64,000 bases of DNA from Candidatus Spyradenecus sp. (GCA_045535075.1 JAZSKX010000013.1:1-64000), one strand, 5' to 3'. Positions 9,601 to 40,767 are shown, counted from the first letter of the stretch. A program made the numbers and translations. The notes: a model not told the origin generated them from the sequence alone.

Positions 9601-12600
9601 TCATTTCTTTTTCTTGGGTTGCGGAAACAGGGTTGCAATTTCCCGGGCAAACTCGAAGACGTTCCCGCGGACGGCATCGGCGCACGCGGCGGGAACGGCG
9701 GATCCGAAAAGAAATTCACGGAACGGGCGCGCGAAATCTTCGCTTTTACCGGCTTCGTCCGAAAATTTTTTTAAAAATGTGTCTGCATCATCGCTTTCTG
9801 GAAGTGGCATACCTGCGAAAAACGGCGGCGGATTTTCCATGCCTTCAAAAAATCGCCGAAGCAGTTTCAGAGCCAATTTGTCGGGAATTGCATCGGAATC
9901 GATTTTGAGGACGGAGTCTTGCTTCCGGGAAACAAAATTCGGGTGGAGGGCGATGAAAGTGAATTTCGTTTCCGGAATGGCTTCCTTAATGAATGCGGCG
10001 TAGACGGCGGCATGGATTTTGAATTCCCATGCCGTCGAATAAACTCGCGGGAACGATTTTACGCAGCAAAACGCTTCATCCGCGTCCCGCAATGTGTCGA
10101 ATTCGAGGCGGACAGTCACGCCGCTCGGGAATGCTTTTGCGTCCGCTTCAAATTTGAGCGTTCGGGCAACGGGCGTACTTTTTTCCGTCGGCAAAAATTC
10201 TTTTCCGAGCGTTTGTGCCCAAGTGTACTGATTCCGTTTAAAGTACTTGAGCCTTAGATTATCGTCGACGGCAAGCGATTCCGTTTCGCAGTTTACGGGA
10301 AAATCCCCGCTTGCTTTTTTTTGTCGAACCGTTTTCCCGAGAGCTTCCAGCATGGATTCAACAATTTCGTTTTGCCTTTCGACTCCCGGTGCGGAAAGCG
10401 CGCCAAGCCCGAGGCCTACCAGTTGCGGGAAGAGTTGCTTGGTCTTGACTTTCGCCGATTCCGGGTCGGCATCGGAAATTGCTTTATCTTTCCATGCCTG
10501 CATTAAGCGCAGGCGGTTTTCGCAAAAAAATTTCGCCGGTTCCGAAAGAAATTCCGCGATTTGGTCTGCCGTGAGCGAAGAAAACATTTCGTGTTCCCGT
10601 GGGCTGAGTTCGAGACCTTTATTTCCGAGGAAAGGCGGGCGCCATTGTTGCTTTTCGGAGGATGCGCCTGAGAGTTTTTCCGTTTCCGGACTTTGCGGTC
10701 CGTGCTCGAAGAAAAAATGCCTGAGCGCGTCAACGGCGGCTTTTTCCCGTGCCTCTCCGGAAAAATGTTGCGGAATGAGCGTTTCAACGGCTTCGTCGAT
10801 GAATTTTGAAAGCGGTGTGCACGGATGAATGACAAAATTGTTTTTTGCGTTTCGTCCGATGTATGAAAATCTTAAATACGTTTTTGCCGCAAGCACGGCT
10901 TCGAGAAGAAGCAGGCAGTCTTCGTCGCGCGGCGTGCGATCCCATTCGAGCACGCCGGGCCATTGAGCGATGAGGTCGAGCGCAGATTTTTGGGCAGGGC
11001 GCGGGAACTCTCCCGGGTTCATTCCCGCGATGTAAATCGCTTTGGCGGGAATATTTCGCAGCGGCTGAAGTCGGCAAAATGTAATTTTGCCGCGTAGCAT
11101 TCCCGCGCCGTGGCGGCTTTCCCAAGAACGATTTTCGAGCATCTGAACGACGGTCTTCAGCTCTACTTCAAGGTCGCCGATTCCGGCATTTTCTGCTGCT
11201 TGGCGGACGGAGTCGATTGCGTCCGCGAGCATTGCCGATTCCTCGATTTCGTCATCCGAAAATTCAAAAAGAGTGTCCGCCAAATCGCATTTCAGGAAGC
11301 GACACCACTCGGCGACACTTTTTTTGTTCCCGGAATAATGAGCGGCGATTGTCGTGGCGGCTTCAAAAACGCGGAAAAATTTTCCGAGCAATTCGGCGAC
11401 ATTTTCCGGAAGATTTTCCGAGGGAAGGATTTCCCGGTTGTCTCCGAATGAAAGCGGCTCCTCGGTTTCAGAAAATGAAGTTTCCGTCATCACGCCGAGT
11501 GCACAGCGCCGCAGCCCGAAGCGCCAAGAATGATTGTACGCAGCGCGGGAACACGCATCGGAATCTTCCGGAAGCGCATCGGCGGACTCAAAAAACCTGC
11601 GCTCGCGGGAACTCGCGTCGGCTCCCCAGCGCAGATTGGACGCAATCAGGATTTTTCGCAGGAGGCGGACATCGTCTTCGTCGAGTTTGAGCGCACGCGT
11701 AAGCGCTTCGGAATCAAAAAGCTCGCTGATCTCGGAAAGCCGCATTTCGCCTTGTGCGATTTTTAACAGCGACAAAAATGCCGTTATTCCGCCGAAGCGC
11801 GCCGCATCTGCGCTGTCTGCGAGAGAAAACGGGAACTCGCTGTCGCCGAAAACGGTTCGGATAAACGGCGCATAGGCCTCAATGTCGGGAAGCATGACGA
11901 GAATGTCGCGCGGACGGATTGCGGGATCGCGCGCCGTCAAATCGCGCAAATCATCGCGAAGGATTTCCATTTCCCGCATCCGCGAATGTGCGGCATGGAT
12001 GCGCAACGAAACGCAGCCTTCCGCAGGCGGGAACGCGGCGGCAAATAAATCGTCTTCCGCAGGGGCGTCTTCGCGAACGATGTTTTCTCGAATGTCTGCC
12101 TGCAGGCGATGAAGCAGGGAATCGCGTTCGGGCGCTTGGTCGAGATTTTCTCCGTTGCCGAGCAGGTTGCATTCGATGAGCCCGTTTGCGAGCGCGCGCG
12201 CGGCTTTTCCCCAGGAGGTCAGCATCTCGTTCCCGCGTTCGGCGGATTCGGGCTTGGCGAGATTGCTTTTTTGATTGCGGCTTTCGACCCAGAAGTTTTC
12301 GGAAAGATTGTGGTAATAGAAAAGGATCGGCGTGTGCTCCGAGAGCTTTTTCAGCATCTCAAAGTGGGTTTTCGGGAGCGCTGTCGGTGCAAATACAAAA
12401 AGCCTTTTCGGAAGATTTTCTGTATTTATCTTGTAATTACCTTCGTAAAAATTCCGGTAGCGCATGGCGGGAATTTCATCATCGCGCAAGGCGAGTTTTT
12501 GCCAGAGATTTTTTTGCCGGGCGTACTCGAACTTGAAAGTTTCGCTAGCGTTGGAAAGCTCCGGAATGTCCTCACCGCGTGTCCACGCGACAATCATTTC

Positions 12601-13044
12601 CGTTCGAAAGCTTTGATATCGCCAAAACAAATCGGCGAGTGTTTGCGCCGTTTGAATGAGATCTTCTTCGCGATTTTCGCGAAAACGGAAACAAAGTTCT
12701 TCCGGCGTAGCGTTTTCCGGCGCATGGAGCTCGCGGAGCGTTTTGAAGATGCGCCACGCAAGCGCGTCGCGATCGAAGGTATTTCGGGAAGCGGAGTTCC
12801 CGCAGTTGCTGATTTTATCGAGAAAACTTTCCGGCGAGGCGAAGCGGATGTTGGCGCAAATTCCGTTTTTTTGTGCGAGGTAATGCTGTAGCCAAATGCG
12901 TTGCGCGTAGTTGGTAATCAGAATGGTCTCGGGAACGAACGGATCGTCGCGTTGCTCAATTTCCCGCGCGAGCGCTTCTGCCAGCGTTTCGATGGAATAC
13001 GCGGGAAAGAGGCGGAAGTTCTCGAAGGCGTTTAGCGTGCCCAC
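9601..13044 (-). CDS. recC: exodeoxyribonuclease V gamma subunit
   Basis: DPFVPETIL, GICANIRF, MLTSWGK, SLLHRLQADI, HSRMREMEILRD, DILVMLPDIEAYAPFI, ITFCRLQPLRNIP. Confidence 0.9.
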   Translation of the reverse strand: MGTLNAFENFRLFPAYSIETLAEALAREIEQRDDPFVPETILITNYAQRIWLQHYLAQKNGICANIRFASPESFLDKISNCGNSASRNTFDRDALAWRIFKTLRELHAPENATPEELCFRFRENREEDLIQTAQTLADLFWRYQSFRTEMIVAWTRGEDIPELSNASETFKFEYARQKNLWQKLALRDDEIPAMRYRNFYEGNYKINTENLPKRLFVFAPTALPKTHFEMLKKLSEHTPILFYYHNLSENFWVESRNQKSNLAKPESAERGNEMLTSWGKAARALANGLIECNLLGNGENLDQAPERDSLLHRLQADIRENIVREDAPAEDDLFAAAFPPAEGCVSLRIHAAHSRMREMEILRDDLRDLTARDPAIRPRDILVMLPDIEAYAPFIRTVFGDSEFPFSLADSADAARFGGITAFLSLLKIAQGEMRLSEISELFDSEALTRALKLDEDDVRLLRKILIASNLRWGADASSRERRFFESADALPEDSDACSRAAYNHSWRFGLRRCALGVMTETSFSETEEPLSFGDNREILPSENLPENVAELLGKFFRVFEAATTIAAHYSGNKKSVAEWCRFLKCDLADTLFEFSDDEIEESAMLADAIDSVRQAAENAGIGDLEVELKTVVQMLENRSWESRHGAGMLRGKITFCRLQPLRNIPAKAIYIAGMNPGEFPRPAQKSALDLIAQWPGVLEWDRTPRDEDCLLLLEAVLAAKTYLRFSYIGRNAKNNFVIHPCTPLSKFIDEAVETLIPQHFSGEAREKAAVDALRHFFFEHGPQSPETEKLSGASSEKQQWRPPFLGNKGLELSPREHEMFSSLTADQIAEFLSEPAKFFCENRLRLMQAWKDKAISDADPESAKVKTKQLFPQLVGLGLGALSAPGVERQNEIVESMLEALGKTVRQKKASGDFPVNCETESLAVDDNLRLKYFKRNQYTWAQTLGKEFLPTEKSTPVARTLKFEADAKAFPSGVTVRLEFDTLRDADEAFCCVKSFPRVYSTAWEFKIHAAVYAAFIKEAIPETKFTFIALHPNFVSRKQDSVLKIDSDAIPDKLALKLLRRFFEGMENPPPFFAGMPLPESDDADTFLKKFSDEAGKSEDFARPFREFLFGSAVPAACADAVRGNVFEFAREIATLFPQPKKKK

Positions 13045-13827: not shown

Positions 13828-13867
13828 GTTTGCGTCGGCGTGGGAACGCTCATAACTTTCCCGCAAG

Positions 13868-13963
13868 TTTTCAGTAAGGGGTGCCCGCGGGAACGTTTCC
13901 CGTCGGCTGAGATTATACCCGCGAACCTGATCCGGATAATGCCGGCGTAGGAAATGCTGAGGA
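13868..13963 (+). promoter_or_regulatory. TPP riboswitch
   Basis: GGGGTGC...GCTGAGA..ATACCC..GAACCTGATCCGGATAATGCCGGCGTAGGAA consensus upstream of thiamine genes. Confidence 0.96.
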
Positions 13964-14053
13964 AGTTTCGACCGTGTTGCGCGAACGAGTGTTCCCGCAC
14001 CGTGCGCTCTTTTGAAAACGAAAAAAATAACAGAAAGAGCAAAAAACATGGTT

Positions 14054-14821
14054 ATGGAAGAACAGATCTCGGGCGCAATCGTGCGTTCGTTTTTCAAAAA
14101 ACTCGAAAGCCGCCTCGCGGTGGACGTCGCCATCGTCGGCGCAGGACCGAGCGGACTCGTCGCCGCGCGCGACCTCGCAAAAGCCGGCTACAAAGTTGCA
14201 ATTTACGAAAGCAAACTCGCGCCCGGCGGCGGCGTTTGGGGCGGCGGAATGCTGATGAACGAAGTCGTCGTTCAAGACGACGCGGCAGAAATTCTCCGCG
14301 ATTTCGAAATTACGACCATTCCGTGCGGGAACGGGTTTCACACGGTCGATTCCGTTGAAATGGCGGCGGGGCTCATTTTCGGCGCGCGCAAAGCGGGAGC
14401 GGTGATTTTTAACACGGTCTGCGTCGAAGACATCGTCGTTCACAACGGCGTCATCGCGGGCGTTGTCATCAACTGGAATCCCGTGCGGCGGCTCGACATG
14501 CACGTCGATCCGATTGTCGTTACCGCGCGCGCCGTGGTAGACGGCACCGGGCATCCGAGCGAAATCGTCCGCAAAGCCGTCAACAAAGCCGGCGTTCAAA
14601 TCGATTCGCCGACGGGCGGCATTCTCGGCGAAAAACCCATGTGGATGGAAGACGGCGAACGCACGACCGTTGAAAACACGAAGCGGCTTTTCCCCGGGCT
14701 TTACGCTTCCGGCATGGCGGCAAACAACGTGCAGGGCGGCTTCCGCATGGGCCCGATTTTCGGCGGCATGCTTAAAAGCGGCCGCAAACTCGCGGGCATC
14801 ATCGCCGAAGATTTAAAATAA
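14054..14821 (+). CDS. thi4: sulfide-dependent thiazole synthase (Thi4 family)
   Basis: [24 protein letters not shown] (His, not Cys), RMGPIFGGM; start could also be ATG 14048. Confidence 0.93.
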
Positions 14822-15556: not shown

Positions 15557-15910
15557 CGTTAGGAGCTCTTACGTTCGGCGGATGTGTTACCGTCGGCGCT
15601 AAAAATTCGTTTTGAGGAAATCGATGAGAGTTGGGGGCTGAGAGCTTAGAGGCAAATGCGTTCCCGCAAGCGGAAAAAAGGTCTTCGAAATCCGTTTTCG
15701 TGAAGCGAGGCGCAAATACCTATCATCTCTCAGCGCTCCTCGCTCGTCAGAAACTCTATTTATAGAACTCCCCTTAGATTGGCAAGGTATACATTCCTTC
15801 GTCCATGCGCGTTTCTCCCCAAATCTCTTTTCCTTTTGAAAAATCCCGTCAAAAGGCATTCAATTTCCGGCAGTAAAATTATATCTCACAAAATTCCGCT
15901 TCCCGCATCT

Positions 15911-18766
15911 ATGCCTTTGTCTTGGAACGAAATCCGCCAACGTGCCATCAAGTTTTCCCGCGAATGGGAAGGTGAAGCGCGAGAATCCGCCGAATACGCT
16001 TCTTTTTGGAACGACTTTTTCGACGTTTTCGGAATTCGCCGCCGCACCGTCGCTTCTTTTCAGGAGCCCGTCAGAAAACTTTCCGGCGACTACGGCTTCA
16101 TCGATTTATTTTGGAAAGGCACCGTGCTCGTCGAGCATAAATCTCTCGGAAAAAGTTTCGACAAAGCCGAATGCCAAGCCTTTGACTACATTCAGGCTCT
16201 CTGCAATGAAGGTCGTGAAGAGGAATGTCCGCGCTACGTCATTCTATCCGATTACAAACGAATAAAACTTTTCGATCTCGAACCCGACGATTGCGCACTC
16301 CCGCTCGTCGACAAAACACACTGCGCCGAATACGAATTCGAGCTTAGGGATTTTCACAAAAACGTTCACCTCTTCGCCTTCATTCCGGGCTACAAGCAGT
16401 ATCGTCACCACGACGAAGCGCCCGTAAATCTCAAAGCGGTAAAACTTCTCAGCGACCTGCACATCGAACTCGAAAAGTCCGGATACGGCGGGCACGATCT
16501 CGAAGTCTTCCTCGTTCGCATCCTGTTCTGTTTTTTTGCGGATGATACCGGAATCTTTGAGCGCGATTCCTTCAAGCTTTACATCGAAAACAAAACACAC
16601 GAGGACGGCTCCGATCTCGGCATGCGCCTTGCCCGCCTTTTCCAGCTTTTAAATACGCCGCCGGAAAAACGCCAAGCCAACCTCGACGAAGACCTCGCCG
16701 CGTTCCCGTATGTCAACGGCGGCCTTTTTGCCGAGAACCTAAACTTCGCCGACCTCAATCGCACCATGCGGGAACGCCTCCTGCGATGCGCAAATTTCGA
16801 CTGGGCTGCGATTTCGCCCGCAGCCTTCGGCTCGCTTTTCCAAGGCATCATGGATGCCAAAACTCGCCGTGAACTTGGCGCCCACTACACCTCCGAAGCC
16901 GACATCCTAAAACTCATCCGTCCGCTTTTCCTCGACGAGCTCCGCGCCGAATTTGAGGCAGCCAAAAACGACCGCTCTTCCCGCAGAAAACAACGCTTGG
17001 AAAAATTACTCGCCAAACTCCCGACGTTGACGTTTTTCGATCCTGCTTGCGGTTGCGGAAACTTCCTCATCATTGCCTATCGAGAACTTCGCCTACTCGA
17101 AATTGATATTTTAAAAGAATTATTTGCACGGGAGAGAGCATCAAGTGAAAAGACTCTTGGTTTTAAATTTTCGTCAAAATCAGGAACAACTCCAAGTCGT
17201 GTTGATGTTGACCAATTTTACGGAATCGAGCTCGAAGAATGGCCCGCACGCATCGCCGAAGTTTCCCTTTGGCTGATGGACCACAAAATGAATCAGGAAC
17301 TCTCGCTGATTTTCGGGGAACTCTATGTGCGCATCCCGCTTAAAAAATCACCCAACATCCATGTCGGGAACGCACTCACAAACGATTGGAAAACAATTAT
17401 TCTTCCCGAGAAATGTTCCTACATTTTAGGAAATCCGCCGTTCGCGGGCTCCAAATTTCAGAGCAAAGGACAACGGGAAGAAATTGATGCCGCTTTCGAG
17501 GGAAAGACCAAGAGCGGAATTTTGGATTATGTTTCCGGCTGGTATGCAAAAGCGGCAGAATTTATCGCGGGAACGAAAATTCGGGTTGGATTTGTATCTA
17601 CAAATTCCATTACGCAGGGCGAACAAGTTGATGCGCTCTGGGGATTTTTGTTTCAAAAGGGAATCAAAATTCACTTCGCCTATCGCACCTTTTCTTGGCA
17701 AAGCGAAGCAAGCGGGAAAGCGCACGTTCACGTCGTAATCGTTGGGTTCGGATTTGAAGATGTTCCCGTGAAAACAATTTATGAAATTGCCGATTCGGCG
17801 GGAACGACTTCTTCTTACAACGCAAAAAATATCAACGGATATTTGATTGATGCCTCAAACATTTCGTTACCTAATCGCTCAAAACCGATTTGCAACGTTC
17901 CCGAAATCGGAATCGGAAATAAACCGATTGACGGCGGGAATTACCTTTTTACCGACGAAGAAAAAACGGCGTTTTTAGAAAAAGAACCTTCTGCCGAAAA
18001 ATATTTTCGAAAATGGTATGGTTCGGACGAATTTATTAACGGCTGGCACCGTTGGTGTCTGTGGCTTGGGGATTGTCCTCCCGGCGAATTGAGGAAAATG
18101 CCGGAATGTATGAAGCGCGTTGAAGCCGTAAGAAAGCTTCGACTCGAAAGCAAGAGCAAGCCGACCAACCACCTTGCGGAAACGCCGACACGCTTTCACG
18201 TCGAAAACATGCCTGCGGGAACGTTTATCGTTATTCCGGAAGTTTCTTCCGAAAGACGTGATTACGTTCCGATCGGCTTTTTCAGTCCGGATGTTTTGTG
18301 CAGTAATTTGGTGAAAATCATTCCCGATGCGACGCTTTATCATTTCGGTATTTTGACTTCGACGATGCACAACGCGTGGATGCGTCAGGTTTGCGGACGT
18401 CTCGAAAGCAGGTATCGCTATTCGGCGGGAATTGTTTACAACAACTTCATTTGGCCGTCGGGCGTTCCCGCGAAAGCTCGCGAAAAAATCGAAAACCTTG
18501 CGCAGAAAATTTTGGATGTGCGCAAAATCTACATCGACGGGCAAGGCAGTTCCCTCGCCGATTTGTATGACCCGCTCACAATGCCCGGTGATTTGCTCCG
18601 CGCTCACCGTGAGCTCGACAAAGCCGTTGACAAACTCTACCGCAAAGAACCCTTCACCTCCGAGCGCGAACGCGTCGAATTCCTTTTCGCCCTCTACGAA
18701 TCCGCCGCTACCCCACTCGCTCCTGCGACACCAAAACTTTCTCCCCGCAAACGGAAAACACAGTAG
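15911..18766 (+). CDS. MmeI-family type IIL restriction-modification enzyme (endonuclease + N6-adenine MTase + TRD)
   Basis: Start revised to MPLSWNEI (ATG 15911); PD-(D/E)xK-like FIDLF..LVEHKS, YVNGGLF, GAHYTS, FFDPACGCGNFL, GNPPF, TNSITQGEQV, GRLESRYRYS, LADLYDP. Confidence 0.93.
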   Translation: MPLSWNEIRQRAIKFSREWEGEARESAEYASFWNDFFDVFGIRRRTVASFQEPVRKLSGDYGFIDLFWKGTVLVEHKSLGKSFDKAECQAFDYIQALCNEGREEECPRYVILSDYKRIKLFDLEPDDCALPLVDKTHCAEYEFELRDFHKNVHLFAFIPGYKQYRHHDEAPVNLKAVKLLSDLHIELEKSGYGGHDLEVFLVRILFCFFADDTGIFERDSFKLYIENKTHEDGSDLGMRLARLFQLLNTPPEKRQANLDEDLAAFPYVNGGLFAENLNFADLNRTMRERLLRCANFDWAAISPAAFGSLFQGIMDAKTRRELGAHYTSEADILKLIRPLFLDELRAEFEAAKNDRSSRRKQRLEKLLAKLPTLTFFDPACGCGNFLIIAYRELRLLEIDILKELFARERASSEKTLGFKFSSKSGTTPSRVDVDQFYGIELEEWPARIAEVSLWLMDHKMNQELSLIFGELYVRIPLKKSPNIHVGNALTNDWKTIILPEKCSYILGNPPFAGSKFQSKGQREEIDAAFEGKTKSGILDYVSGWYAKAAEFIAGTKIRVGFVSTNSITQGEQVDALWGFLFQKGIKIHFAYRTFSWQSEASGKAHVHVVIVGFGFEDVPVKTIYEIADSAGTTSSYNAKNINGYLIDASNISLPNRSKPICNVPEIGIGNKPIDGGNYLFTDEEKTAFLEKEPSAEKYFRKWYGSDEFINGWHRWCLWLGDCPPGELRKMPECMKRVEAVRKLRLESKSKPTNHLAETPTRFHVENMPAGTFIVIPEVSSERRDYVPIGFFSPDVLCSNLVKIIPDATLYHFGILTSTMHNAWMRQVCGRLESRYRYSAGIVYNNFIWPSGVPAKAREKIENLAQKILDVRKIYIDGQGSSLADLYDPLTMPGDLLRAHRELDKAVDKLYRKEPFTSERERVEFLFALYESAATPLAPATPKLSPRKRKTQ

Positions 18767-18778
18767 AGAAAAATTGCT

Positions 18779-21592
18779 ATGAATAAGAATCTAAGCGATT
18801 ACGCGAAGGCGCTATCGGAGTTAAGCTCCGAAGATATTTACACGGGACTTGTTGGCTACGGATTATTTCCTGAAAAACTACCTCCAATTTTCACTTCCGA
18901 AAAATTTGAGAGATTATGTCGTGGCGATGGGAAAAGCACTTTTTACACTGATAGTGTTTGTGATTATATCGTTCATGAAAGTATTCGAAATACGAATGTC
19001 CCTCGTGTTATGGGGATTCCGAATCCGTTTGCGTACCATAATTTAGCCAGCAGGGTTAAAGATAATTGGCAAAAGATTGTTGATTATTTTAAGGAAAAGA
19101 CAGAAGGGAATCTTCATAAGGTAAGCAAAATTCATCTGCGAAAAATCAAAGGGAAGAAATGTATATTTGAGATGAATTATAAAAATCATCGTACAGATGA
19201 TTATCCGGAATTAGATCTTAGAATCGGAGCGAAATATTTAGTTAAAGCGGATATTTCAAATTGCTTTCCGAGCATGTATTCTCACGCTCTTGCATGGGCT
19301 CTCGTCGGGAAAGAGATCGCGAAAGAGAATAGCAGAAGTAAGAAGGAATGGTATAACGAGTTAGACAAACTGTCCCGGTATATAAAAAACAACGAAACAA
19401 ATGGTTTTTTAATTGGGCCTCATGTTTCAAACCTACTTTCCGAAATAATTCTCGTGGCGGTAGACGACAGCTTGCGGAAAAACCATGGCAGCGAGGTGAA
19501 TTATTTTCGAAATATTGACGATTATTCGTTTTATGCGAAAAGCCGCGATGAGGCGGAGCGGTTTTTGGTGAGTTTGAGGGAAGCATTACGTGAGTATGGG
19601 TTGTCCTTAAATCACAAAAAAACGGAGATAATAGAACTTCCGTTGATGCGACCTGAGTCATGGGTGAATGAAATTAATGACTTTTTAGCGTTTTGTCCGT
19701 CTAAGCGTTTTGAAAAAGGTCGGTTGCAGGCGTTCGTGAACAAAGTTGTACTGCTTTTTAAAAACAACGGAGAGAATAGCGCGATCATCAATTATGCAAT
19801 GAAAGCGATTCGAGAACGTTCGGCTGATTCCCATGGTCGAGAATATTACATAAAAACGATATTTCATTTATCTCATCTTTACCCCTATATTTTCCCGCTT
19901 TTAGATAAAAATTTATTTGAGCCTTTTGATGTAGAGGTCGGGGATATCCGTACGCTTTCCTGGAAAATGTATGAGCTTGCCATGAAGGTTCGAAATTACG
20001 AAGCGGCAAGCTATTCTATTTATTACGCTCTTAAGTATGGATTTAGACTATCAAAGGTAGATTTTGACCGTATAAAAAACTCCGGAGACTGTGTTTTATT
20101 GATATTGGCATGGAGGTATTCCGTACGATTTCAGTTAAAGAGTGAGCAAGACAAATACACGGATTTGGCGAAGGATTTGTTGAAACGTGATTTTGATCGT
20201 TACTGGGTTTTTGTGTACGAAGCATTAGGCGATTCGGATCTCAAGGAAATCGACTCCGGAAAAAACAAATTCAAAGATCAGTGGGTGGCGCTAAAGAAGA
20301 AAAGCATATCTTTCCTTCTTTCTGACGAAGAAGTACGCGCTAAAGTATCTCCAAATAGCAAGACAATGCACATAAATTTGGAAGGAGGGGATTATGACGA
20401 TGAGAGGGCAATCGCGCTTTCGAAAGAAATTTGGAGACAGGCAGGGAAAGATCTTGTAGGGTTCGACGCGGAGGAGGGAGAGCGCTGTTTAAGGTTGCTT
20501 TTGAGAAATTTATTTTTAGGGTTTGTTTCAAATTCAAATATTTCTATATCGAGGGAAAGGTTTAAAAATTCAAAATTCCTTTCGCTTTTGGATTGGATGA
20601 AGGACAATAACTATTTGGGAGAACGGCTTGGGAGAAAACCTGATGCAGGAGAAAAAGGACGCCTCTCATGCTATTGGGCTAAGGAAAAATTGCATGAGCA
20701 CTTCCATTTATTTGGAAAGGACGTGGCACCTTTGGAGGGGCAAGATGATTATTTCGTTGAGTTGAGGATGACAGATAAAAGGATATGCAAGGTACGGTTT
20801 CGTTCAGAAAAAGAGCAAAGGTATCAAAAAGGGCTTAGCGATCTTAACGAATTTTATAAAGGATTTAAGTTTACATACAGATCTCCACAGCTAAAAGAAC
20901 GGATACGGTTTTATCCGTTTCTCAAAGCTATTTTTAATAGGGCTTCGTGGGATTGTGGCGGGCGATTGTATTCTACCGGAGGGAATGGAATCAGTTACCA
21001 AAGCTTACCGTCGGATATCAGAATGAGCATTAGAATAGGTGGGAAAAAGACCGTAGAACTAGATTTTTCGGGGATGCACATAGCAATGCTTTATGCGAAA
21101 GAAAAAGTGAATGTTCCTGAGCAGATTTATGATTTTATGGGGACAGAGTTGATCCCGCTTATCAAGCATTTGACAATGGTTCTAATTAATAGCAGAACCG
21201 AGGAAGTTGCGCTAAACGAGGTTCGCTTCAAGGAGAGGGAGTTAGAGCAGTATTTAGGGGAAATCAGTGATAAGGATGCTTCTCTTTTGTCCGCGATTAA
21301 GGCGATGAGAGGAAGAGAAAAAGAAAATACATTTGAGGATTTAGTTGGTAAGATAAAAGAACATCATAAACCCATTGAGAAATATTTTGGAAGTGATTGT
21401 GGCGTGAGACTTCAGAATAAAGATTCTATCATTGCACTGGAGATACTTGAAGAATTTGCGAAACAAGGTATTCCTGTCTTGCCTGTGCATGATTCTTTTA
21501 TCATCCAGAAAGAGTATGAGGGAAATCTGAGGAATGCAATGGATAGGTTGTTCAAAAAGCACAATAATGGATACCCTTGTGAAATTCATTAA
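18779..21592 (+). CDS. defence-associated reverse transcriptase (DRT4/UG-Abi-like) fused to family-A polymerase-like domain
   Basis: RT: RNTNVPRVMGIPNP, ADISNCFPSMYSHALAWAL (D158), GFLIGPHVSNLLSEI, YFRNIDDY (D247/D248), LSLNHKKT; C-terminus: GGRLY (727-731), VELDFSGMH (D762), IKHLTMVLIN (K796), RLQNKDS, PVHDSF (D905). Confidence 0.85.
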   Translation: MNKNLSDYAKALSELSSEDIYTGLVGYGLFPEKLPPIFTSEKFERLCRGDGKSTFYTDSVCDYIVHESIRNTNVPRVMGIPNPFAYHNLASRVKDNWQKIVDYFKEKTEGNLHKVSKIHLRKIKGKKCIFEMNYKNHRTDDYPELDLRIGAKYLVKADISNCFPSMYSHALAWALVGKEIAKENSRSKKEWYNELDKLSRYIKNNETNGFLIGPHVSNLLSEIILVAVDDSLRKNHGSEVNYFRNIDDYSFYAKSRDEAERFLVSLREALREYGLSLNHKKTEIIELPLMRPESWVNEINDFLAFCPSKRFEKGRLQAFVNKVVLLFKNNGENSAIINYAMKAIRERSADSHGREYYIKTIFHLSHLYPYIFPLLDKNLFEPFDVEVGDIRTLSWKMYELAMKVRNYEAASYSIYYALKYGFRLSKVDFDRIKNSGDCVLLILAWRYSVRFQLKSEQDKYTDLAKDLLKRDFDRYWVFVYEALGDSDLKEIDSGKNKFKDQWVALKKKSISFLLSDEEVRAKVSPNSKTMHINLEGGDYDDERAIALSKEIWRQAGKDLVGFDAEEGERCLRLLLRNLFLGFVSNSNISISRERFKNSKFLSLLDWMKDNNYLGERLGRKPDAGEKGRLSCYWAKEKLHEHFHLFGKDVAPLEGQDDYFVELRMTDKRICKVRFRSEKEQRYQKGLSDLNEFYKGFKFTYRSPQLKERIRFYPFLKAIFNRASWDCGGRLYSTGGNGISYQSLPSDIRMSIRIGGKKTVELDFSGMHIAMLYAKEKVNVPEQIYDFMGTELIPLIKHLTMVLINSRTEEVALNEVRFKERELEQYLGEISDKDASLLSAIKAMRGREKENTFEDLVGKIKEHHKPIEKYFGSDCGVRLQNKDSIIALEILEEFAKQGIPVLPVHDSFIIQKEYEGNLRNAMDRLFKKHNNGYPCEIH

Positions 21593-21605
21593 AATTTAAA
21601 TCATT

Positions 21606-22229
21606 ATGAACGACAAAAAAGGCTACGTTTACATTTTGACGAATCCGAGTTTTCGGGAAGATTGGGTGAAAATCGGAAAAAGTTCACGCCCGGTCGATGT
21701 GCGTTCAAAGGAATTAGATAATACGGCGGTTCCGCTTCCGTTTGAGATTTTTGCGACGCTCAAAACCTCGAAGTATCATTTGGTTGAAAAACAAATTCAT
21801 AAGATGATTGATCGTCTGACGGATTTACGGATTCGGCAAAATCGGGAGTTTTTCAATGTTTCTCCGCAGTTGGCATTTGAGATATTGAAAGATGCCGCAT
21901 CCACGCTTGATGATGCGGAGATAAAGCTGTTTTCCGGAGTAGAGGACGCTGAACATGCGCCGCCACGGCGTCCGCCGTTTAAATTCAGCATGGCGGGTGT
22001 TAAGATTGGTGAGAAAGTCACGTTTGTTCCTGCCAAAATAGAAGTAACGGTGGCAAGTGAGAAGCACGTCGAGTACGAGGGACGGCTTTATACGCTTTCG
22101 GCGTTTACGGGAACGTTCATGCCGGAGTCCGAGCTAAATTCTTCGGGCGCTTACCAAGGACCGAAATATTTTACTTACAAAGGAAAAACGCTCAGCGCTC
22201 TTCGCCGGGAACGGGAATCCGGCAAATAG
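21606..22229 (+). CDS. GIY-YIG nuclease family (T5orf172-like) protein
   Basis: GYVYILTN..WVKIGKS, LDNTAVPLPF, NREFF; separate C-terminal domain after RRPPFKF. Confidence 0.85.
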   Translation: MNDKKGYVYILTNPSFREDWVKIGKSSRPVDVRSKELDNTAVPLPFEIFATLKTSKYHLVEKQIHKMIDRLTDLRIRQNREFFNVSPQLAFEILKDAASTLDDAEIKLFSGVEDAEHAPPRRPPFKFSMAGVKIGEKVTFVPAKIEVTVASEKHVEYEGRLYTLSAFTGTFMPESELNSSGAYQGPKYFTYKGKTLSALRRERESGK

Positions 22230-22410
22230 CTGTTTGCCATTCCGGAAAAGGATTTTTTGGAATTCTTTTTTCAGGTAAAACAGGCGTTGAAGGCATGCAA
22301 ACGAGCTAAACGAGCCTCCGCCCTGGAGAGATATTAGATACCACGCTGCGGAACGATCAATTTGCACTCTACGTTCACGCGGAAGCGATTCCTTCGTCCC
22401 AAGGCATTGT

Positions 22411-22497: not shown

Positions 22498-22829
22498 GCA
22501 CAAATCCGCTAAGCCGCAACGTTTTTTTTCAAAACAGAGAAACAATGTAGAGGTTTTTCTAAAAAATTATCCGTGAAATTCCGTGTGTTCCATGGTTTGG
22601 AAAAGTTTGTGCATCACGCGCGAGCGGTCTGGGAAAGTCGCTGGAAGCTCCAATTTTCAGTTTTCAACTCTCGCCCGGACGCCGCATGCGCACTCGCTTT
22701 GCTCGTTTGCCAATTACGCTTTCGGTTAAAATGTCTCTTAAAAATTCACGGTGTTTATTTAATATATTTTAATTATCTTATTAAAAAATATTTTACTTTC
22801 GGGGAGTTGGCGGATAGATTTGAAGAATC

Positions 22830-23600
22830 ATGAGTACGCTGAAAAATCTTCGTTTGAGAGCCGGATTTACGCAGGACGCGCTTGCGGGAGAGATTGGCGT
22901 TTCGAAGCAGACGCTGATTGCCTACGAGAAAAATCCCGCGAATATTCCGGCGGGAAAGGTGGCGGCGTTGGCGCGGCTTTTTGAAGTCGATTGCGACTGC
23001 ATTATCAACGATACCGAGCCGAAAACTTATTCCTACGACGTGCAGGCAAACACGGGAACGGCGGTGCAAAACCCGGAAATCCGCATTTCGATTCCGCAAG
23101 ATAATATCGAGAAATTCAAAGAAGTTTTGCTCTACATTCTCGGGCGTGTGGGCGCGCGTCCGAACGTCGGTCAGACCGTGCTTTATAAATTACTCTACTT
23201 CATCGATTTCGATTACTACGAAAAATACGAAGAACAACTCATCGGAGCCAAATACATCAAAAATACGTTCGGACCGACGCCGGTGGATTTTGCAAAAATC
23301 ACGCAGGAAATGGAACGCGGGAACGAGCTTTCCGTAGTAAAAGACAAATATTTTACCAAGGAACAAACAAAGTATCTGCCGCACCGCGACGCAGATTTGA
23401 GCCGGTTCTCGGCGCGGGAACTCGCCCACATCGAAGATTGTCTCCGCAAATACGCGGGAATGAACGCAAAGGAAATTTCGGATTATTCGCACAAAGATGT
23501 GCCGTGGATCGTGGCGGAAAACCGCGAGCCGATAGACTACGAAAGCGTTTTCTACCGTACGCCGGAAACTTCGGTTCGACAATATGCCGATGACGAATAA
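22830..23600 (+). CDS. XRE-HTH fused to Panacea/SocA (DUF4065) antitoxin
   Basis: LKNLRLRAGFTQDALAGEIGVSKQTLIAYE HTH; LYKLLYFIDF, YIKNTFGPTP, ISDYSHKDVPW. Confidence 0.85.
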   Translation: MSTLKNLRLRAGFTQDALAGEIGVSKQTLIAYEKNPANIPAGKVAALARLFEVDCDCIINDTEPKTYSYDVQANTGTAVQNPEIRISIPQDNIEKFKEVLLYILGRVGARPNVGQTVLYKLLYFIDFDYYEKYEEQLIGAKYIKNTFGPTPVDFAKITQEMERGNELSVVKDKYFTKEQTKYLPHRDADLSRFSARELAHIEDCLRKYAGMNAKEISDYSHKDVPWIVAENREPIDYESVFYRTPETSVRQYADDE

Positions 23601-24118: not shown

Positions 24119-25936
24119 ATGGAAGTACCTACAACCAACCAAAAACTCATCAACTGGGTGAATGAATTCGTTGCCCTCTGCAAACCTGCAAAGGTTCACT
24201 GGTGCGACGGCAGCAAGGAAGAAGCCGACAAGCTCTTCGGAGAAATGGTCGCCAGCGGTATGGCGATTAAGCTCAACGAAGAAAAACGTCCGGGCTGCTA
24301 CCTTTATCGTTCCGACCCGCGCGACGTTGCTCGCGTTGAAAAGCGCACCCTCATCTGCTCGAAGGAAAAGGAAAATGCCGGACCGACGAACAACTGGGAA
24401 GATCCGGTTGTGATGAAGGAAAAAATGCGTGCCCTTTACGACGGCTGTATGGAAGGCCGCACGATGTATGTCATCCCGTTTGCGATGGGTCCGCTCGGCT
24501 CCCCGATCGCGCAATACGGCGTTGAAATCACGGACTCCCCGTATGTCGTTGTCTCGATGCGCATCATGGCTCGCGTCACGACGGAAGTTCTCCGCTACAT
24601 TGAAAAGGACGACTTCTTCGTTCCCTGCGTCCACTCCGTCGGTATGCCGCTCAAACCGGGCGTCGAAGACGTGAAATGGCCGTGCAATCCGGACAACACC
24701 TACATTGTCCACTTCCCGGAAGAAAGCACGATTTGGTCTTTCGGTTCCGGCTACGGAGGAAATGCGCTCCTCGGCAAAAAGTGCTTCGCGCTTCGCATTG
24801 CTTCGAACCTCGCCCGCAAGCAGGGCTGGCTCGCTGAGCACATGCTCATTCTCGGTGTCAAAACTCCGGAAGGCAAGAAACACTACGTTACGGCTGCGTT
24901 CCCGTCGGCTTGCGGTAAGACGAACTTCGCGATGCTTATCCCGCCGAAAGAACTCCGTGAAAAAGGCTGGGAAATCACCTGCGTCGGCGACGACATTGCA
25001 TGGATCAAGCCGGACGCCACTGGTCAGCTCCGCGCCATCAATCCGCAAAACGGCTTTTTCGGCGTTGCTCCGGGAACGGCTATGCATACGAACCCGAACG
25101 CGCTCCTTTCCTGCTCGAAAAACACCATCTTCACGAACGTCGCTCTTACCGACGACGGCGATATCTGGTGGGAAGGCATGACCAAGGAACCGCCGGCACA
25201 CCTCATCGACTGGCAGGGCAACGACTGGACGCCCGACATGATCGACGAAAAAACCGGAAAACGCAAACTCTCCTCGCACCCGAACTCCCGCTTCGCGGCT
25301 CCGGCAGCTAACTGCCCGTGCATCGACCCGGATTGGCAGAGCGCGGAAGGCGTTCCCGTCGACGTGTTCGTTTACGGCGGTCGCCGCATGAACGACATTC
25401 CGCTCGTGTTCCAAGCGCACAACTGGGCACACGGTGTTTATCTCGGCGCCACGGTCGGTTCCGAACAAACGGCTGCTGCTGAAGGTCAGGTCGGCGCTCT
25501 CCGCCGCGACCCGTTCGCGATGCTTCCGTTCTGCGGCTACCACATGGGCGACTACTTCGCGCACTACCTGTCCATGGCGAAAATCGCCAAGACGCCGGCA
25601 GTCTTCCACGTCAATTGGTTCCGCAAAACGCCGGAAGGCAAGTTCATGTGGCCGGGCTACGGCGACAATGCTCGCGTTCTCGCGTGGATGATCGGCCGCG
25701 TCGAAGGCACGGCTTCCGCTAAGGATTCGCCGTTCGGCTACATTCCGTCCTACGAAGATATGGACTTCACGGGTCTTGACTTCTCCAAGGAAGAATTCGA
25801 CGCCGTCATGGCTATCGACGCGAACCGCGTCAAGGAACTCGCCGAAGCCAACACCGATTATCTCGCAAACACGATCGGTCACGCTTCGCCGGAACTCCTC
25901 GCGGTTTCCGACGACATCATCGCGCGTTGCAAATAA
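24119..25936 (+). CDS. pckG: phosphoenolpyruvate carboxykinase (GTP)
   Basis: [56 protein letters not shown]. Confidence 0.97.
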
Positions 25937-25964
25937 GAAAAGCTTAAAAACTAAAGCTTAAAGA

Positions 25965-26005
25965 AGAGCGTTCCCGTGATTCATTTCGCGGGAACGCTTT
26001 TTTTT
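25965..26005 (+). terminator. intrinsic terminator built from inverted CGGGAAC motifs
   Basis: AGCGTTCCCGTGA-ttcatt-TCGCGGGAACGCT followed by T-run. Confidence 0.85.
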
Positions 26006-26060
26006 GTTTTCAGTTTCGTCGAGTCGCCCTTACGAATTCGCAGGCAGAAAAGGGCGGGGA

Positions 26061-27242
26061 TTAGTCGAGCGCGTCCAGGACGGCTCCGGCGATAGCGTCG
26101 GCGACGAGGCGTCCGCGTGCGTTTAATGCTAAAATATCGGGAGAGTCGGCGGCGATTTCGCTGAGGTAATTTTCGTCGTGCAAAGCCGATTTCAATTCGA
26201 CGAGCGATTCCGGAATTTCAGATTTCCCAAGAAAGCGTTTTGCCAGTCCGGAGAGGCAAACACCTTCGTTGAGTCTGAGTCCGAAGATGATCGCGTCTGC
26301 AAAAAGTTGATTTCCGTCGAGAATCGTCTCGTCAACGCGCACGGGAACGCCGGAGGCGAGCCCGTCGAGCCAGAGCGGGAGGTTGGCGGGATTGGCAAAT
26401 CGTTTTCCGAAGCATTGCGATGCGGCGGCGGGACCGTAGCCGAGCCATTCGTGCATACGCCATGTATTTAAATTATGCATACAAATATTTTCCCCGTGTG
26501 CATGATTGGCGATTTCGTATTGCTTGTAGCCGGCGGCGGCAAGTTTTTCCCATGTTTCCAAATATAATTCCGCTTCGCGCTCGGGGGATTTTTCTGCGGG
26601 ATCGAAGCGCGGTGACTGTTGTAGACGTGCAAGTAGCGGAGCCTCCTCTTCGAGCATTAGGCAGTAGGTCGAAAGGTGTTCGGGAGCGAGGGAAATCGCC
26701 TGTGCAATATCGCTGTGCCAGCGTGAATGATTTTCTCCGGGAACGGAAAAAATCAGATCGAGGTTTACGTTGGAAAATCCGGCGGCGCGAATAGTCTCAT
26801 AGGCGGAAAAAATTTTTTTCGGTGCGTGGCGTCTGCCGAGGAGGGCGAGTGTTTCTGCATCGAACGACTGAACGCCCATTGAAATGCGATTTACGCCGAT
26901 ATTTTTCAGCGCCTGCATCTTGTCGGCGCGGACGGTTGCAGGCGCGAGCTCGACACTCCATTCTTCGGGAGCGTTCCCGCGATTGGCTTTCAGGAGGATT
27001 TTCCCGAGTCGTTCGAAGTCGGATGCCGTCAAAATTCCCGGTGTTCCGCCCCCGATGAAAAACGTATTTGCCGGACGCGGGAGCGGAATCAACTCTGCTT
27101 CCCGCTCGATGCCGCGAAGCCACGCATCAATTGCTTCCCGCTTGGGCGCTTCCTTGTAAAACGCGCAATAGTCGCACGCGTTCCCGCAAAACGGAACGTG
27201 TACATAGAGACCGAGCTGAGTGCCATTATTTGTATTTTTCAC
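26061..27242 (-). CDS. hemW: radical SAM heme chaperone HemW
   Basis: LYVHVPFC..ACDYCAF, GGGTP, RISMGVQSF, YEIANHA, HNLNTW; lacks HemN N-terminal PRYTSYP. Confidence 0.85.
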   Translation of the reverse strand: MKNTNNGTQLGLYVHVPFCGNACDYCAFYKEAPKREAIDAWLRGIEREAELIPLPRPANTFFIGGGTPGILTASDFERLGKILLKANRGNAPEEWSVELAPATVRADKMQALKNIGVNRISMGVQSFDAETLALLGRRHAPKKIFSAYETIRAAGFSNVNLDLIFSVPGENHSRWHSDIAQAISLAPEHLSTYCLMLEEEAPLLARLQQSPRFDPAEKSPEREAELYLETWEKLAAAGYKQYEIANHAHGENICMHNLNTWRMHEWLGYGPAAASQCFGKRFANPANLPLWLDGLASGVPVRVDETILDGNQLFADAIIFGLRLNEGVCLSGLAKRFLGKSEIPESLVELKSALHDENYLSEIAADSPDILALNARGRLVADAIAGAVLDALD

Positions 27243-40476: not shown

Positions 40477-40564
40477 GCTTTTGATTAAAACGGTTTATGC
40501 GCGGCGCGGGAACGCAAAAATAGGACTTGCGCCCTGCGTGCGTTTAGTAGAAGCTTAGAAACAA

Positions 40565-40657
40565 GTCAGGTCCCGGGCAACGAATGCCGGCGAACCCCGT
40601 CAGATCCGGAAGGAAGCAGCGGCAGTCAGGTTCCTCGTGTGCTCCGGTCAACCTGGC
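40565..40657 (+). ncRNA. ffs: signal recognition particle RNA (small type)
   Basis: Helix-8 signature GTCAGATCCGGAAGGAAGCAGC; complementary ends GTCAGGT/ACCTGGC. Confidence 0.92.
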
Positions 40658-40767
40658 GTTTTTGTTTTATTGTCTATCTGCTTCCGAAAGCAACGGGGCG
40701 TTCTCGCGGATGCGAGATGAATTTCCTTTTCCCGCGCGGGAACGCGGCTTAAAATCACCCGCTAATT

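Follow-up and report, generated by a model that had tools for sequence, protein, structure and literature searches.

A DRT4-type reverse transcriptase fused to a divPolA2-type, family-A-like polymerase in a bacterial defense island

Some bacterial reverse transcriptases (RTs) have been described together with a second polymerase. In DRT7 (UG10), the RT product is handed to an AEP primase-polymerase to give duplex-like DNA (preprint), DRT3 carries out two-strand synthesis, and the UG9 RT pairs with a DNA polymerase of family A that is encoded by a separate gene (Mestre 2022). Here, we describe a gene for a DRT4-type RT that is fused, within one chain, to a polymerase of the phage divPolA2 family. 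The gene lies in a 64,000-nucleotide stretch of DNA from Candidatus Spyradenecus sp. (GCA_045535075.1, JAZSKX010000013.1:1-64000), the whole of which we call the window. A first-pass annotation of the window had proposed an antiphage fusion of an RT with a second polymerase, and it had correctly stated that the UG9 partner is a separate gene.

Canonical DRT4 is a hexamer whose protomers each make untemplated, purine-rich single-stranded DNA (ssDNA) covalently attached to Tyr125 (PMC12783706; bioRxiv 10.64898/2026.10.21.760695). Phage proteins that resemble single-stranded DNA-binding protein (SSB) bind this ssDNA and a flexible tail formed by residues 508 to 540, and this binding, together with dGTP or raised dNTP levels, turns on an RNase that leads to abortive infection (bioRxiv 10.64898/2026.10.21.760695). 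The tail of the E. coli enzyme binds the phage SSB gp44 and is needed for both RNase activation and defense (bioRxiv 10.64898/2026.10.21.760695), and removing the 38 C-terminal residues of UG15 abolishes immunity (Mestre 2022). In E. coli DRT4, Tyr125 is the priming residue and Asp149, Asp240, and Asp241 serve RT catalysis (PMC12783706), while His160 and Asp192 form the effector RNase pair (bioRxiv 10.64898/2026.10.21.760695). The second family, divPolA2, is a diverged group of PolA proteins found in tailed phages, barbaviruses among them (Yutin et al. 2024, PMC11348598). A genome has two or three paralogues, whose neighborhoods vary; the proteins are without an exonuclease domain, carry an N-terminal globular domain of unknown kind, and have been proposed to act as repair DNA polymerases or RNA polymerases (PMC11348598).

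The gene is a single open reading frame (ORF) that begins with ATG and runs through 937 codons uninterrupted by a stop, as the first-pass annotation had stated, and the motifs quoted there (RNTNVPR, SMYSHALAWA, YFRNIDDY, GGRLY, VELDFSGMH, RLQNKDS, and PVHDSF) are all found in the translation. On sequence comparison, residues 1 to about 520 are recognizable as a full-length DRT4/UG15 enzyme, that is, a class-1 UG/Abi RT, which bears out the kinship with DRT4 that had been suggested there. The PADLOC Drt4 model (PDLC02178) matches residues 7 to 514 with an E value of 1.1e-181 over model positions 4 to 501 of 506, with Drt6 as the runner-up (2.8e-87), and a phmmer search of PDB sequences matches solved UG15/DRT4 chains at 1.3e-45. 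RVT_1 is the only Pfam family in this half. Alignment with the solved UG15 chain 21ou_A pairs Tyr125 of E. coli DRT4 with Tyr134 here, its Asp149/Asp240/Asp241 with Asp158/Asp247/Asp248, and its His160/Asp192 with His169/Asp196.

These residues were followed through a wider sample. In GTDB, with one genome per species, 308 stretches encode a relative, and the best 80 of the 308 loci were examined; an ORF with RT motifs was obtained from 68 of the 80, five ORFs shorter than 450 aa were dropped, and 16 fused proteins from the searches were added, giving 19 fused and 60 canonical rows. The priming Tyr is present in all 19 fused rows and in 53 of the 60 canonical ones, with His in the other 7. The three RT aspartates are kept in 19/19 fused and 60/60 canonical rows, and the RNase pair is invariant in all 79. 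The protein thus resembles DRT4 in its RT and alpha-repeat body, its priming Tyr, its catalytic Asp triad, and its RNase His/Asp pair, and also in being a single-gene unit within a defense island. It differs in its length (937 aa, versus about 500 to 550 aa), with a 417-aa polymerase module that follows the short sensor tail or substitutes for it; in scoring 372.2 bits against the NCBIfam Drt4 model (NF041749), under the equivalog cut-off of 450; and in belonging to a clade of its own. Also, the base-stacking Tyr238 of the E. coli YxDD motif is Asn245 here (nucleotides 19511-19513). Asn occupies this position in 47 of the 60 nearby canonical relatives, so it is the E. coli enzyme that is atypical at position 238.

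Sequence models of known families leave the C-terminal half, residues 521 to 937, almost blank. It has no Pfam match at an E value of 0.1 or below, the DNA_pol_A model (PF00476) included, and an NCBIfam search of the whole protein finds nothing over these residues. The sole PHROGs match is phrog_4756, labeled "unknown function" (5.5e-45), and a profile search of PDB sequences returned zero polymerases, its lone match being ribosomal protein S19e (E value of 0.24). In an exhaustive HMMER search, this half is matched by 5,450 representative clusters at an E value of 0.001 or below; among the best 150 of the 5,450, nearly all are stand-alone proteins of about 400 to 590 aa, and nine are fused proteins of 841 to 950 aa. 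Names are of little help: 10 stand-alone relatives carry no informative source name, phage and plasmid annotations of relatives read only "hypothetical protein," and the Atlas has no Pfam-bearing neighbor above 0.75, its nearest cluster being automatically named "DNA-directed RNA polymerase family protein."

Structure is more telling. An alignment of residues 521 to 937 with 49 stand-alone relatives (A1; 50 rows, in which the domain number plus 520 gives the protein number) has invariant G208, R209, R228, D242, Y252, Y264, and K276 and near-invariant E240, H247, D262, N284, D362, H384, D385, and S386, all in domain numbering. An AlphaFold2 model built with A1 reaches a pLDDT of 89.9 and a pTM of 0.85 (mf971f2e75cba), and the right-hand palm/fingers/thumb fold of PolI/T7-type enzymes is found in this half. 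Key residues of the core are the GGR729LY hairpin, Glu760/Asp762/His767 of motif A, Lys796/Asn804 of the fingers, and His904/Asp905/Ser906 of motif C. A Foldseek search of the PDB gives 118 chains at an E value of 0.001 or below, and every one of the 50 top chains listed is a DNA polymerase of family A (among them apicoplast Pol, Aquifex, Taq, Bst, Klenow, M. smegmatis Pol1, and Pol theta); the match probabilities are about 1.00, yet the global TM-scores are low (0.25 to 0.32). In a viral structure library, the matches are uncharacterized Aeromonas-phage proteins (about 4e-22) and a 435-aa protein of Rheinheimera phage Barba31A named "DNA polymerase" (6.5e-21). A winged-helix-like domain of about 110 aa is the only part ahead of the polymerase core, and a 3'-5' exonuclease is absent. 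Both the family-A likeness and the missing exonuclease had been noted in the first-pass annotation, and both stand.

Because the A1 profile matches a published divPolA2 protein, membership in that family holds at the profile level. The match lies at 25490-26704 (-) of MG592441.1, with an E value of 2.6e-42 over model positions 45 to 426 of 429, and this interval is CDS AUR84708.1, the divPolA2 representative modeled by Yutin et al. 2024. Pairwise BLASTP against AUR84708 aligns only the stretch from GGR to motif A (E value of 2e-6). On the profile and the predicted fold, residues ~521 to 937 are identified as a whole divPolA2, an exonuclease-less, family-A/T7-like polymerase, and we regard the identity and architecture of both halves as very nearly certain. 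The module shares with AUR84708 its length and its layout of a globular domain, of no known family, followed by palm and fingers, and with the family its occurrence in several copies per phage genome. It differs in its context, since divPolA2, described only as a stand-alone phage protein, otherwise occurs by itself with ~400 to 520 aa, chiefly in phages, and here forms the C-terminal half of a bacterial, chromosomal defense RT.

The fusion is not peculiar to one assembly. Besides the window protein, there are 20 fused cluster representatives (P0002-P0011, P0021, P0023-25, P0031, P0037, and P0188-P0191) of 841 to 950 aa and 34 to 90% identity, which answers the search for full-length homologues that the first-pass annotation had proposed. 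Ten proteins with the polymerase domain exceed 730 aa, and every one of them is a fusion to a PF00078 RT. The same annotation had singled out nucleotides 20330 to 20400 as the place where a misassembly would show. Contigs assembled from the reads of three runs in three studies (X1, X2, and X3), ~93 to 94% identical to the window and spanning 19253-22230, 19811-21868, and 18965-22231, cross this junction, and no indel is listed in it. Coverage has gaps in run X6 and in parts of X1 and X2, which carry no evidential weight, and X1 is an RNA library whose contig is no sign of transcription. The idea that the ORF is an artefact, produced by misassembly or by read-through of two genes, has nothing found in its favor. 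Given 20 independent fused representatives from several sources, three fused genome loci, the three bridging contigs, and a junction region that can be aligned across the fused family, we dismiss chance and misassembly and consider the idea refuted.

Fused genes are found at three of the best 80 DRT4 loci (L001, L005, and L009), all in gut bacteria of the PVC group. L001 is an Opitutales metagenome-assembled genome (MAG) whose protein is 88% identical and sits in the same island, while L005 and L009 are Victivallales MAGs with 40 to 41% identity and no neighbors in common with the window, L009 adjoining an IS3-type transposase. Since the neighbors differ, the fusion gene seems to move alone, like canonical DRT4. 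In a quick IQ-TREE phylogeny of the first 515 residues, a branch with an SH-aLRT of 100 sets the 19 fused rows on one side, against the 60 canonical rows. A FastTree phylogeny of the polymerase domain, which has several long branches, included 20 fused and 70 stand-alone rows (the first 70 of 84 representatives of 380 to 480 aa); here, the 20 fused rows and P0029 form one clade with a support of 100. P0029 has 428 aa and comes from a contig of 1,660 nt, so it is probably a cut fused gene. No reversion was seen among the sampled fused members. As read from these trees, the fusion arose once and is old, and its two halves have diverged together.

Moreover, the second active site has been kept throughout this history. 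G727, G728, R729, R748, E760, D762, H767, K796, and N804 are invariant in 17 of 17 aligned fused proteins (34 to 45% identity), and each of the 16 fused sequences long enough to cover these positions has H904, D905, and S906. The residues on which the first-pass annotation had rested its case (D158, D247/D248, D762, K796, and D905) all fall in columns that are invariant or nearly so among the 17 fused homologues. Between the window and L001, the RT half has a dN/dS of 0.40, compared with 0.22 over residues 521 to 825. By these measures, the polymerase half appears to be under purifying selection as a whole domain, and the fused genes make up a rare, distinct subfamily of DRT4 in which both active sites are evidently maintained.

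Literature on DRT4, UG15, TV-Pol, and divPolA2, in the parts available to us, describes no fusion of DRT4/UG15 to a family-A-type polymerase, and a variant recorded solely in the supplements of Mestre 2022 would be missed. UG15 is a stand-alone multidomain protein at all 11 of its mentions in the available text of Mestre 2022, and divPolA2 appears without mention of a fusion at all 4 of its occurrences in that of Yutin 2024 (PMC11348598). The question raised at the outset, whether this architecture is already catalogued as a DRT type, is answered in the negative within that literature. What is new is a DRT4 subfamily with a second, phage-type polymerase; DRT4 and divPolA2 are each known separately.

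We propose that the two halves work in succession. The DRT4 half would act as the canonical enzyme does, as a hexamer that makes untemplated, Tyr-linked ssDNA and whose RNase brings about abortive infection. The tethered divPolA2 half would take the DRT4-made ssDNA as a template and/or a primer, and it would prime or extend a complementary strand to yield a duplex-like product or signal. This hand-off from RT to polymerase is modeled on DRT7, DRT3, and UG9 with its PolA, and we put its probability at roughly 0.4. DRT7 is the nearest parallel in layout, as a class-1 UG/Abi RT with a second polymerase in one chain; it differs in that its second polymerase has the AEP fold, not that of family A, and in its RT group, its domain order, and its poly(T)/poly(A) product. 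UG9 and its PolA likewise join a class-1 UG/Abi RT to a family-A polymerase. However, they are separate genes with an RT of another group, and the UG9 PolA is recognizable as such, unlike the domain here, which Pfam does not match. A bolder form of the proposal, which we hold to be somewhat doubtful, is a self-contained, two-step writer. In it, the untemplated, protein-primed RT would make random purine-rich ssDNA, and the polymerase of the same chain would prime on it and copy it as DNA or RNA, so that a protein-linked, random-sequence duplex would serve as an immune signal or a toxin.

Several observations weigh against the proposed hand-off. Canonical DRT4 needs no second polymerase, to begin with. 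Also, the lineage of the window protein has lost two fingers residues that are conserved in the family: the Arg of RxxxK, present in 44 of the 50 A1 rows, is Ile792, and the fingers Asp, present in 45 of the 50, is Gln782. The first-pass annotation had been right that the motif-B Arg four residues before K796 is missing, and the loss proves to be lineage specific. Of the 17 fused proteins, 13 have Arg in this column; the exceptions are the window protein, P0002, and P0003, with Ile or Val, and P0024, with Lys. In family-A enzymes, the motif-B Arg contacts the phosphates of the incoming nucleotide, and polymerase activity may therefore be poor here. Furthermore, the L001 gene (L001:8001-10810) has a 7-nt deletion at gene nucleotide 2482, which splits it into 841 and 101 aa and truncates the polymerase half. 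The same 7-nt change occurs in the X3 contig; its counterpart in X2, near 21261-21268, is 6 nt long and in frame. Unless this is an assembly error, the deletion in L001 and X3 indicates that the polymerase half is dispensable or decaying in at least one strain. Taken with the losses of Arg and Asp, it suggests that the second polymerase may be weakened or less needed in this branch; by its sequence, the window's copy may be slow, altered, or weakened, or it may act as a sensor.

Such a sensor is the substance of an alternative in which a phage protein, captured as the divPolA2 half, takes the place of the DRT4 tail. It would bind a phage factor (an SSB-like protein or a divPolA2 partner) or ssDNA and thereby license the RNase, with its chemistry secondary or lost. 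The divPolA2 module is attached exactly where canonical DRT4 has its short, flexible, SSB-sensing C-terminal tail, a segment whose binding to gp44 and whose loss in UG15 mark it as essential to immunity in the work cited above. Stand-alone relatives are plentiful in phages (95 phage records, 86 viral-contig matches, and the phrog_4756 family), the window lineage is missing the two fingers residues, and CCPol, the sole biochemically studied minimal A-family polymerase of mobile elements, acts in a tight complex with an SSB-like OB-fold protein (Bebel 2020). Nevertheless, no full-length fused protein has lost the two palm aspartates, the Arg of the hairpin, the Lys of the fingers, or any of about ten other residues that are invariant in the family. 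A pure binding role is disfavored by catalytic residues that persist over deep divergence and would be unneeded for binding. The full RxxxK motif in 13 of the 17 fused proteins also speaks for chemistry, and no conserved partner gene stands beside fused or stand-alone copies at the loci scanned. We judge this alternative unlikely, and the hand-off remains the reading that we prefer.

The stand-alone copies bear on another question, namely, whether the two halves are coupled at all. At 42 stand-alone phage loci, 150 of 154 neighboring ORFs were scanned; most have no Pfam family, and no recurrent partner (helicase, SSB, or primase) appeared. Four phage contigs carry two divPolA2 copies each (L117/L124, L123/L132, L128/L165, and L136/L137), in agreement with the paralogy described by Yutin 2024. 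If the fusion merely co-expressed DRT4 with an unrelated accessory polymerase for repair or for a mobile element, the two activities would be independent of each other. Variable neighborhoods and frequent pairs on one phage contig, like those of mobile or "moron" genes, would suit such a polymerase, as would the rarity of fusions among the best 80 DRT4 loci. Against it stand a single ancient fusion whose halves have co-diverged with no reversion among sampled members, the joining of the domain to the same RT in 10 of 10 proteins longer than 730 aa, and a junction placed at a functional sensor tail. Uncoupled activities are, to our minds, very improbable.

How the module relates to better-known polymerases was examined with PolA proteins from the window's own phylum. 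PolA was found in 13 of 31 genomes, and after L090 (a spurious ORF) and L093 (divergent) were dropped, 11 polymerase domains were compared with A1 by hhalign. The result (probability of 3.7%, E value of 0.012) is too weak to be relied on by itself. In this alignment, GGRLY lies opposite the TGRLS hairpin and ELDFSGMH opposite ADYSQIELR, so that Asp762 coincides with the motif-A Asp and the invariant His767 with the Glu of DYSQIE. That Glu is the steric gate. Its replacement counts in favor of an alternative in which the second half would be an RNA polymerase of the T7/N4-like, single-subunit type that would transcribe RT-made ssDNA or phage DNA into RNA, or into an RNA:DNA hybrid, as a signal or an RNase substrate. 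The invariant Asn804 at the O-helix Tyr position, the HDSF form of motif C, and the automatic name of the nearest Atlas cluster point the same way, and Yutin 2024 raised this possibility for divPolA2 (PMC11348598). Yet Foldseek ranks DNA polymerases first, T7-like promoter-recognition domains are absent, an automatic cluster name is not evidence, and the His767 pairing comes from an alignment with a probability of only 3.7%. An RNA polymerase is accordingly quite improbable in our estimate, and we retain the hand-off as the preferred reading.

A further comparison is with the TV-Pol/CCPol-MP group (Iyer 2008; Bebel 2020), which likewise has a minimal, exonuclease-less family-A core and resides on mobile elements, has an N-terminal helical domain in a subset of members, and occurs in restriction-modification hot spots. 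The minimal TV-Pol core consists of a hairpin Arg, two palm aspartates, and a fingers Asp with RxxxK (Iyer et al. 2008), and all these features are in the divPolA2 family consensus. In A1, the hairpin Arg729 (R209) is present in 50 of 50 rows, within a predicted strand at 207-212; the palm Asp762 in 50 of 50 and Asp905 in 48 of 50; and, in the fingers, Asp in 45, Arg in 44, and Lys in all 50. The window protein departs from the fingers part of this core, having Gln782 and Ile792 and keeping Lys796 alone. TV-Pol is linked to a D5-like helicase, resolvase, integrase, or transposase (Iyer 2008); at the loci scanned, no D5-like helicase, resolvase, or SSB partner was seen with divPolA2. Helicase, resolvase, and integrase families were found in 0 of the 150 neighboring ORFs of the 42 stand-alone phage copies (E value of 1e-4 or below), and none of the 10 long proteins with the polymerase domain is a helicase fusion, all being RT fusions. 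A sequence link to a named TV-Pol was sought in one comparison, with Microcystis phage Ma-LMM01 (a TV-Pol host), and did not emerge: the A1 profile gave zero matches at an E value of 10 or below, an empty result that is uninformative. On a Thioclava plasmid (L176, 6001-6576), a shortened divPolA2-like gene of 311 aa directly follows an IS21 element and has an AbiE toxin-antitoxin pair on one side and a methyltransferase-helicase pair on the other, a setting that resembles a defense or mobile-element hot spot.

The fusion gene lies in a tight row of genes (Table 1), 13 nt after the end of the Type IIG gene and 14 nt before the start of the T5orf172 gene. The row is flanked by thiamine-synthesis genes on one side and PEPCK on the other, and the fusion gene has a GC content of 0.39 to 0.41, compared with 0.52 to 0.59 in the flanks. 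This row is a small, low-GC defense island that was horizontally acquired; a defense setting had also been part of the first-pass annotation, and the Type IIG, PDC-S57, and HTH-Panacea neighbors agree with it. A search with the polymerase domain found no second copy in the window's own genome, and scans for sigma-70 promoters and terminators gave counts at or below shuffle expectation.

Table 1. Modules of the fusion protein and neighboring genes in the window
Feature	Position	Strand	Remarks
Whole ORF, DRT4-divPolA2 fusion protein	18779..21592	+	937 aa; stop codon counted in the coordinates
DRT4/UG15 module, RT fingers/palm and alpha-helical-repeat domain	18779..20338	+	aa 1-520
Core RT palm/fingers	19208..19633	+	aa 144-285; Pfam RVT_1 PF00078, 4.7e-12, 46.5 bits, cut-off 29.6
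Linker and N-terminal globular, winged-helix-like domain of the divPolA2 module	20339..20728	+	aa 521-650
Family-A/T7-like polymerase core of the divPolA2 module	20729..21589	+	aa 651-937; from the model, fold matches, and conserved columns
MmeI-family Type IIG restriction-modification enzyme	15779..18766	+	Five MmeI Pfam domains; PADLOC REase_MTase_IIG, E = 0
T5orf172 / PDC-S57 candidate defense gene	21606..22229	+	PF10544, 5.6e-13; PADLOC PDC-S57, 7.5e-67, full length
HTH_3 and SocA/Panacea antitoxin-like protein	22830..23600	+	Pfam

Other features of the surroundings deserve a brief record. An 86-aa ORF at 22573-22833 (+), with no Pfam or PADLOC match, overlaps the HTH and SocA/Panacea gene by 4 nt and is a candidate toxin partner of that gene. 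A GIY-YIG/T5orf172 gene also stands directly downstream of divPolA2 at 2 of the 42 stand-alone phage loci (L098:3549-4286 [+] and L153:5835-6509 [+]); this adjacency may be due to chance, as T5orf172 genes are common in phages, or it may be a recurrent pairing. Further away, a TPP riboswitch (RF00059, 59.5 bits) at 13867-13971 (+) lies just 5' of a Thi4-family gene at 14012-14821, a gene at 9601-13044 (-), upstream of the thiamine genes, encodes a RecC-like (exonuclease V gamma) protein of 1,147 aa, and a bacterial small SRP RNA (RF00169, 69.2 bits) is located at 40564-40661 (+).

DRT3 and DRT7 have taught that an unconventional RT acting with a second polymerase can give rise to new kinds of DNA products. 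The protein described here adds a third design of RT plus second polymerase, in which DRT4 has a family-A-type polymerase in cis. DRT4 is the best-understood single-gene RT of this kind, and the fusion protein has four separate active sites. Moreover, the position of the DRT4 sensor tail can evidently hold a whole phage-type enzyme, which bears on how infection is sensed. For divPolA2, the fusion offers a first functional lead, tying the family to the handling of RT-made ssDNA. If the two-step writer proved true, the divPolA2 family would receive its first functional assignment, and the thousands of orphan divPolA2 genes of phages would be ssDNA-dependent primase-polymerases that, for example, turn defense-made or replication ssDNA into duplex.

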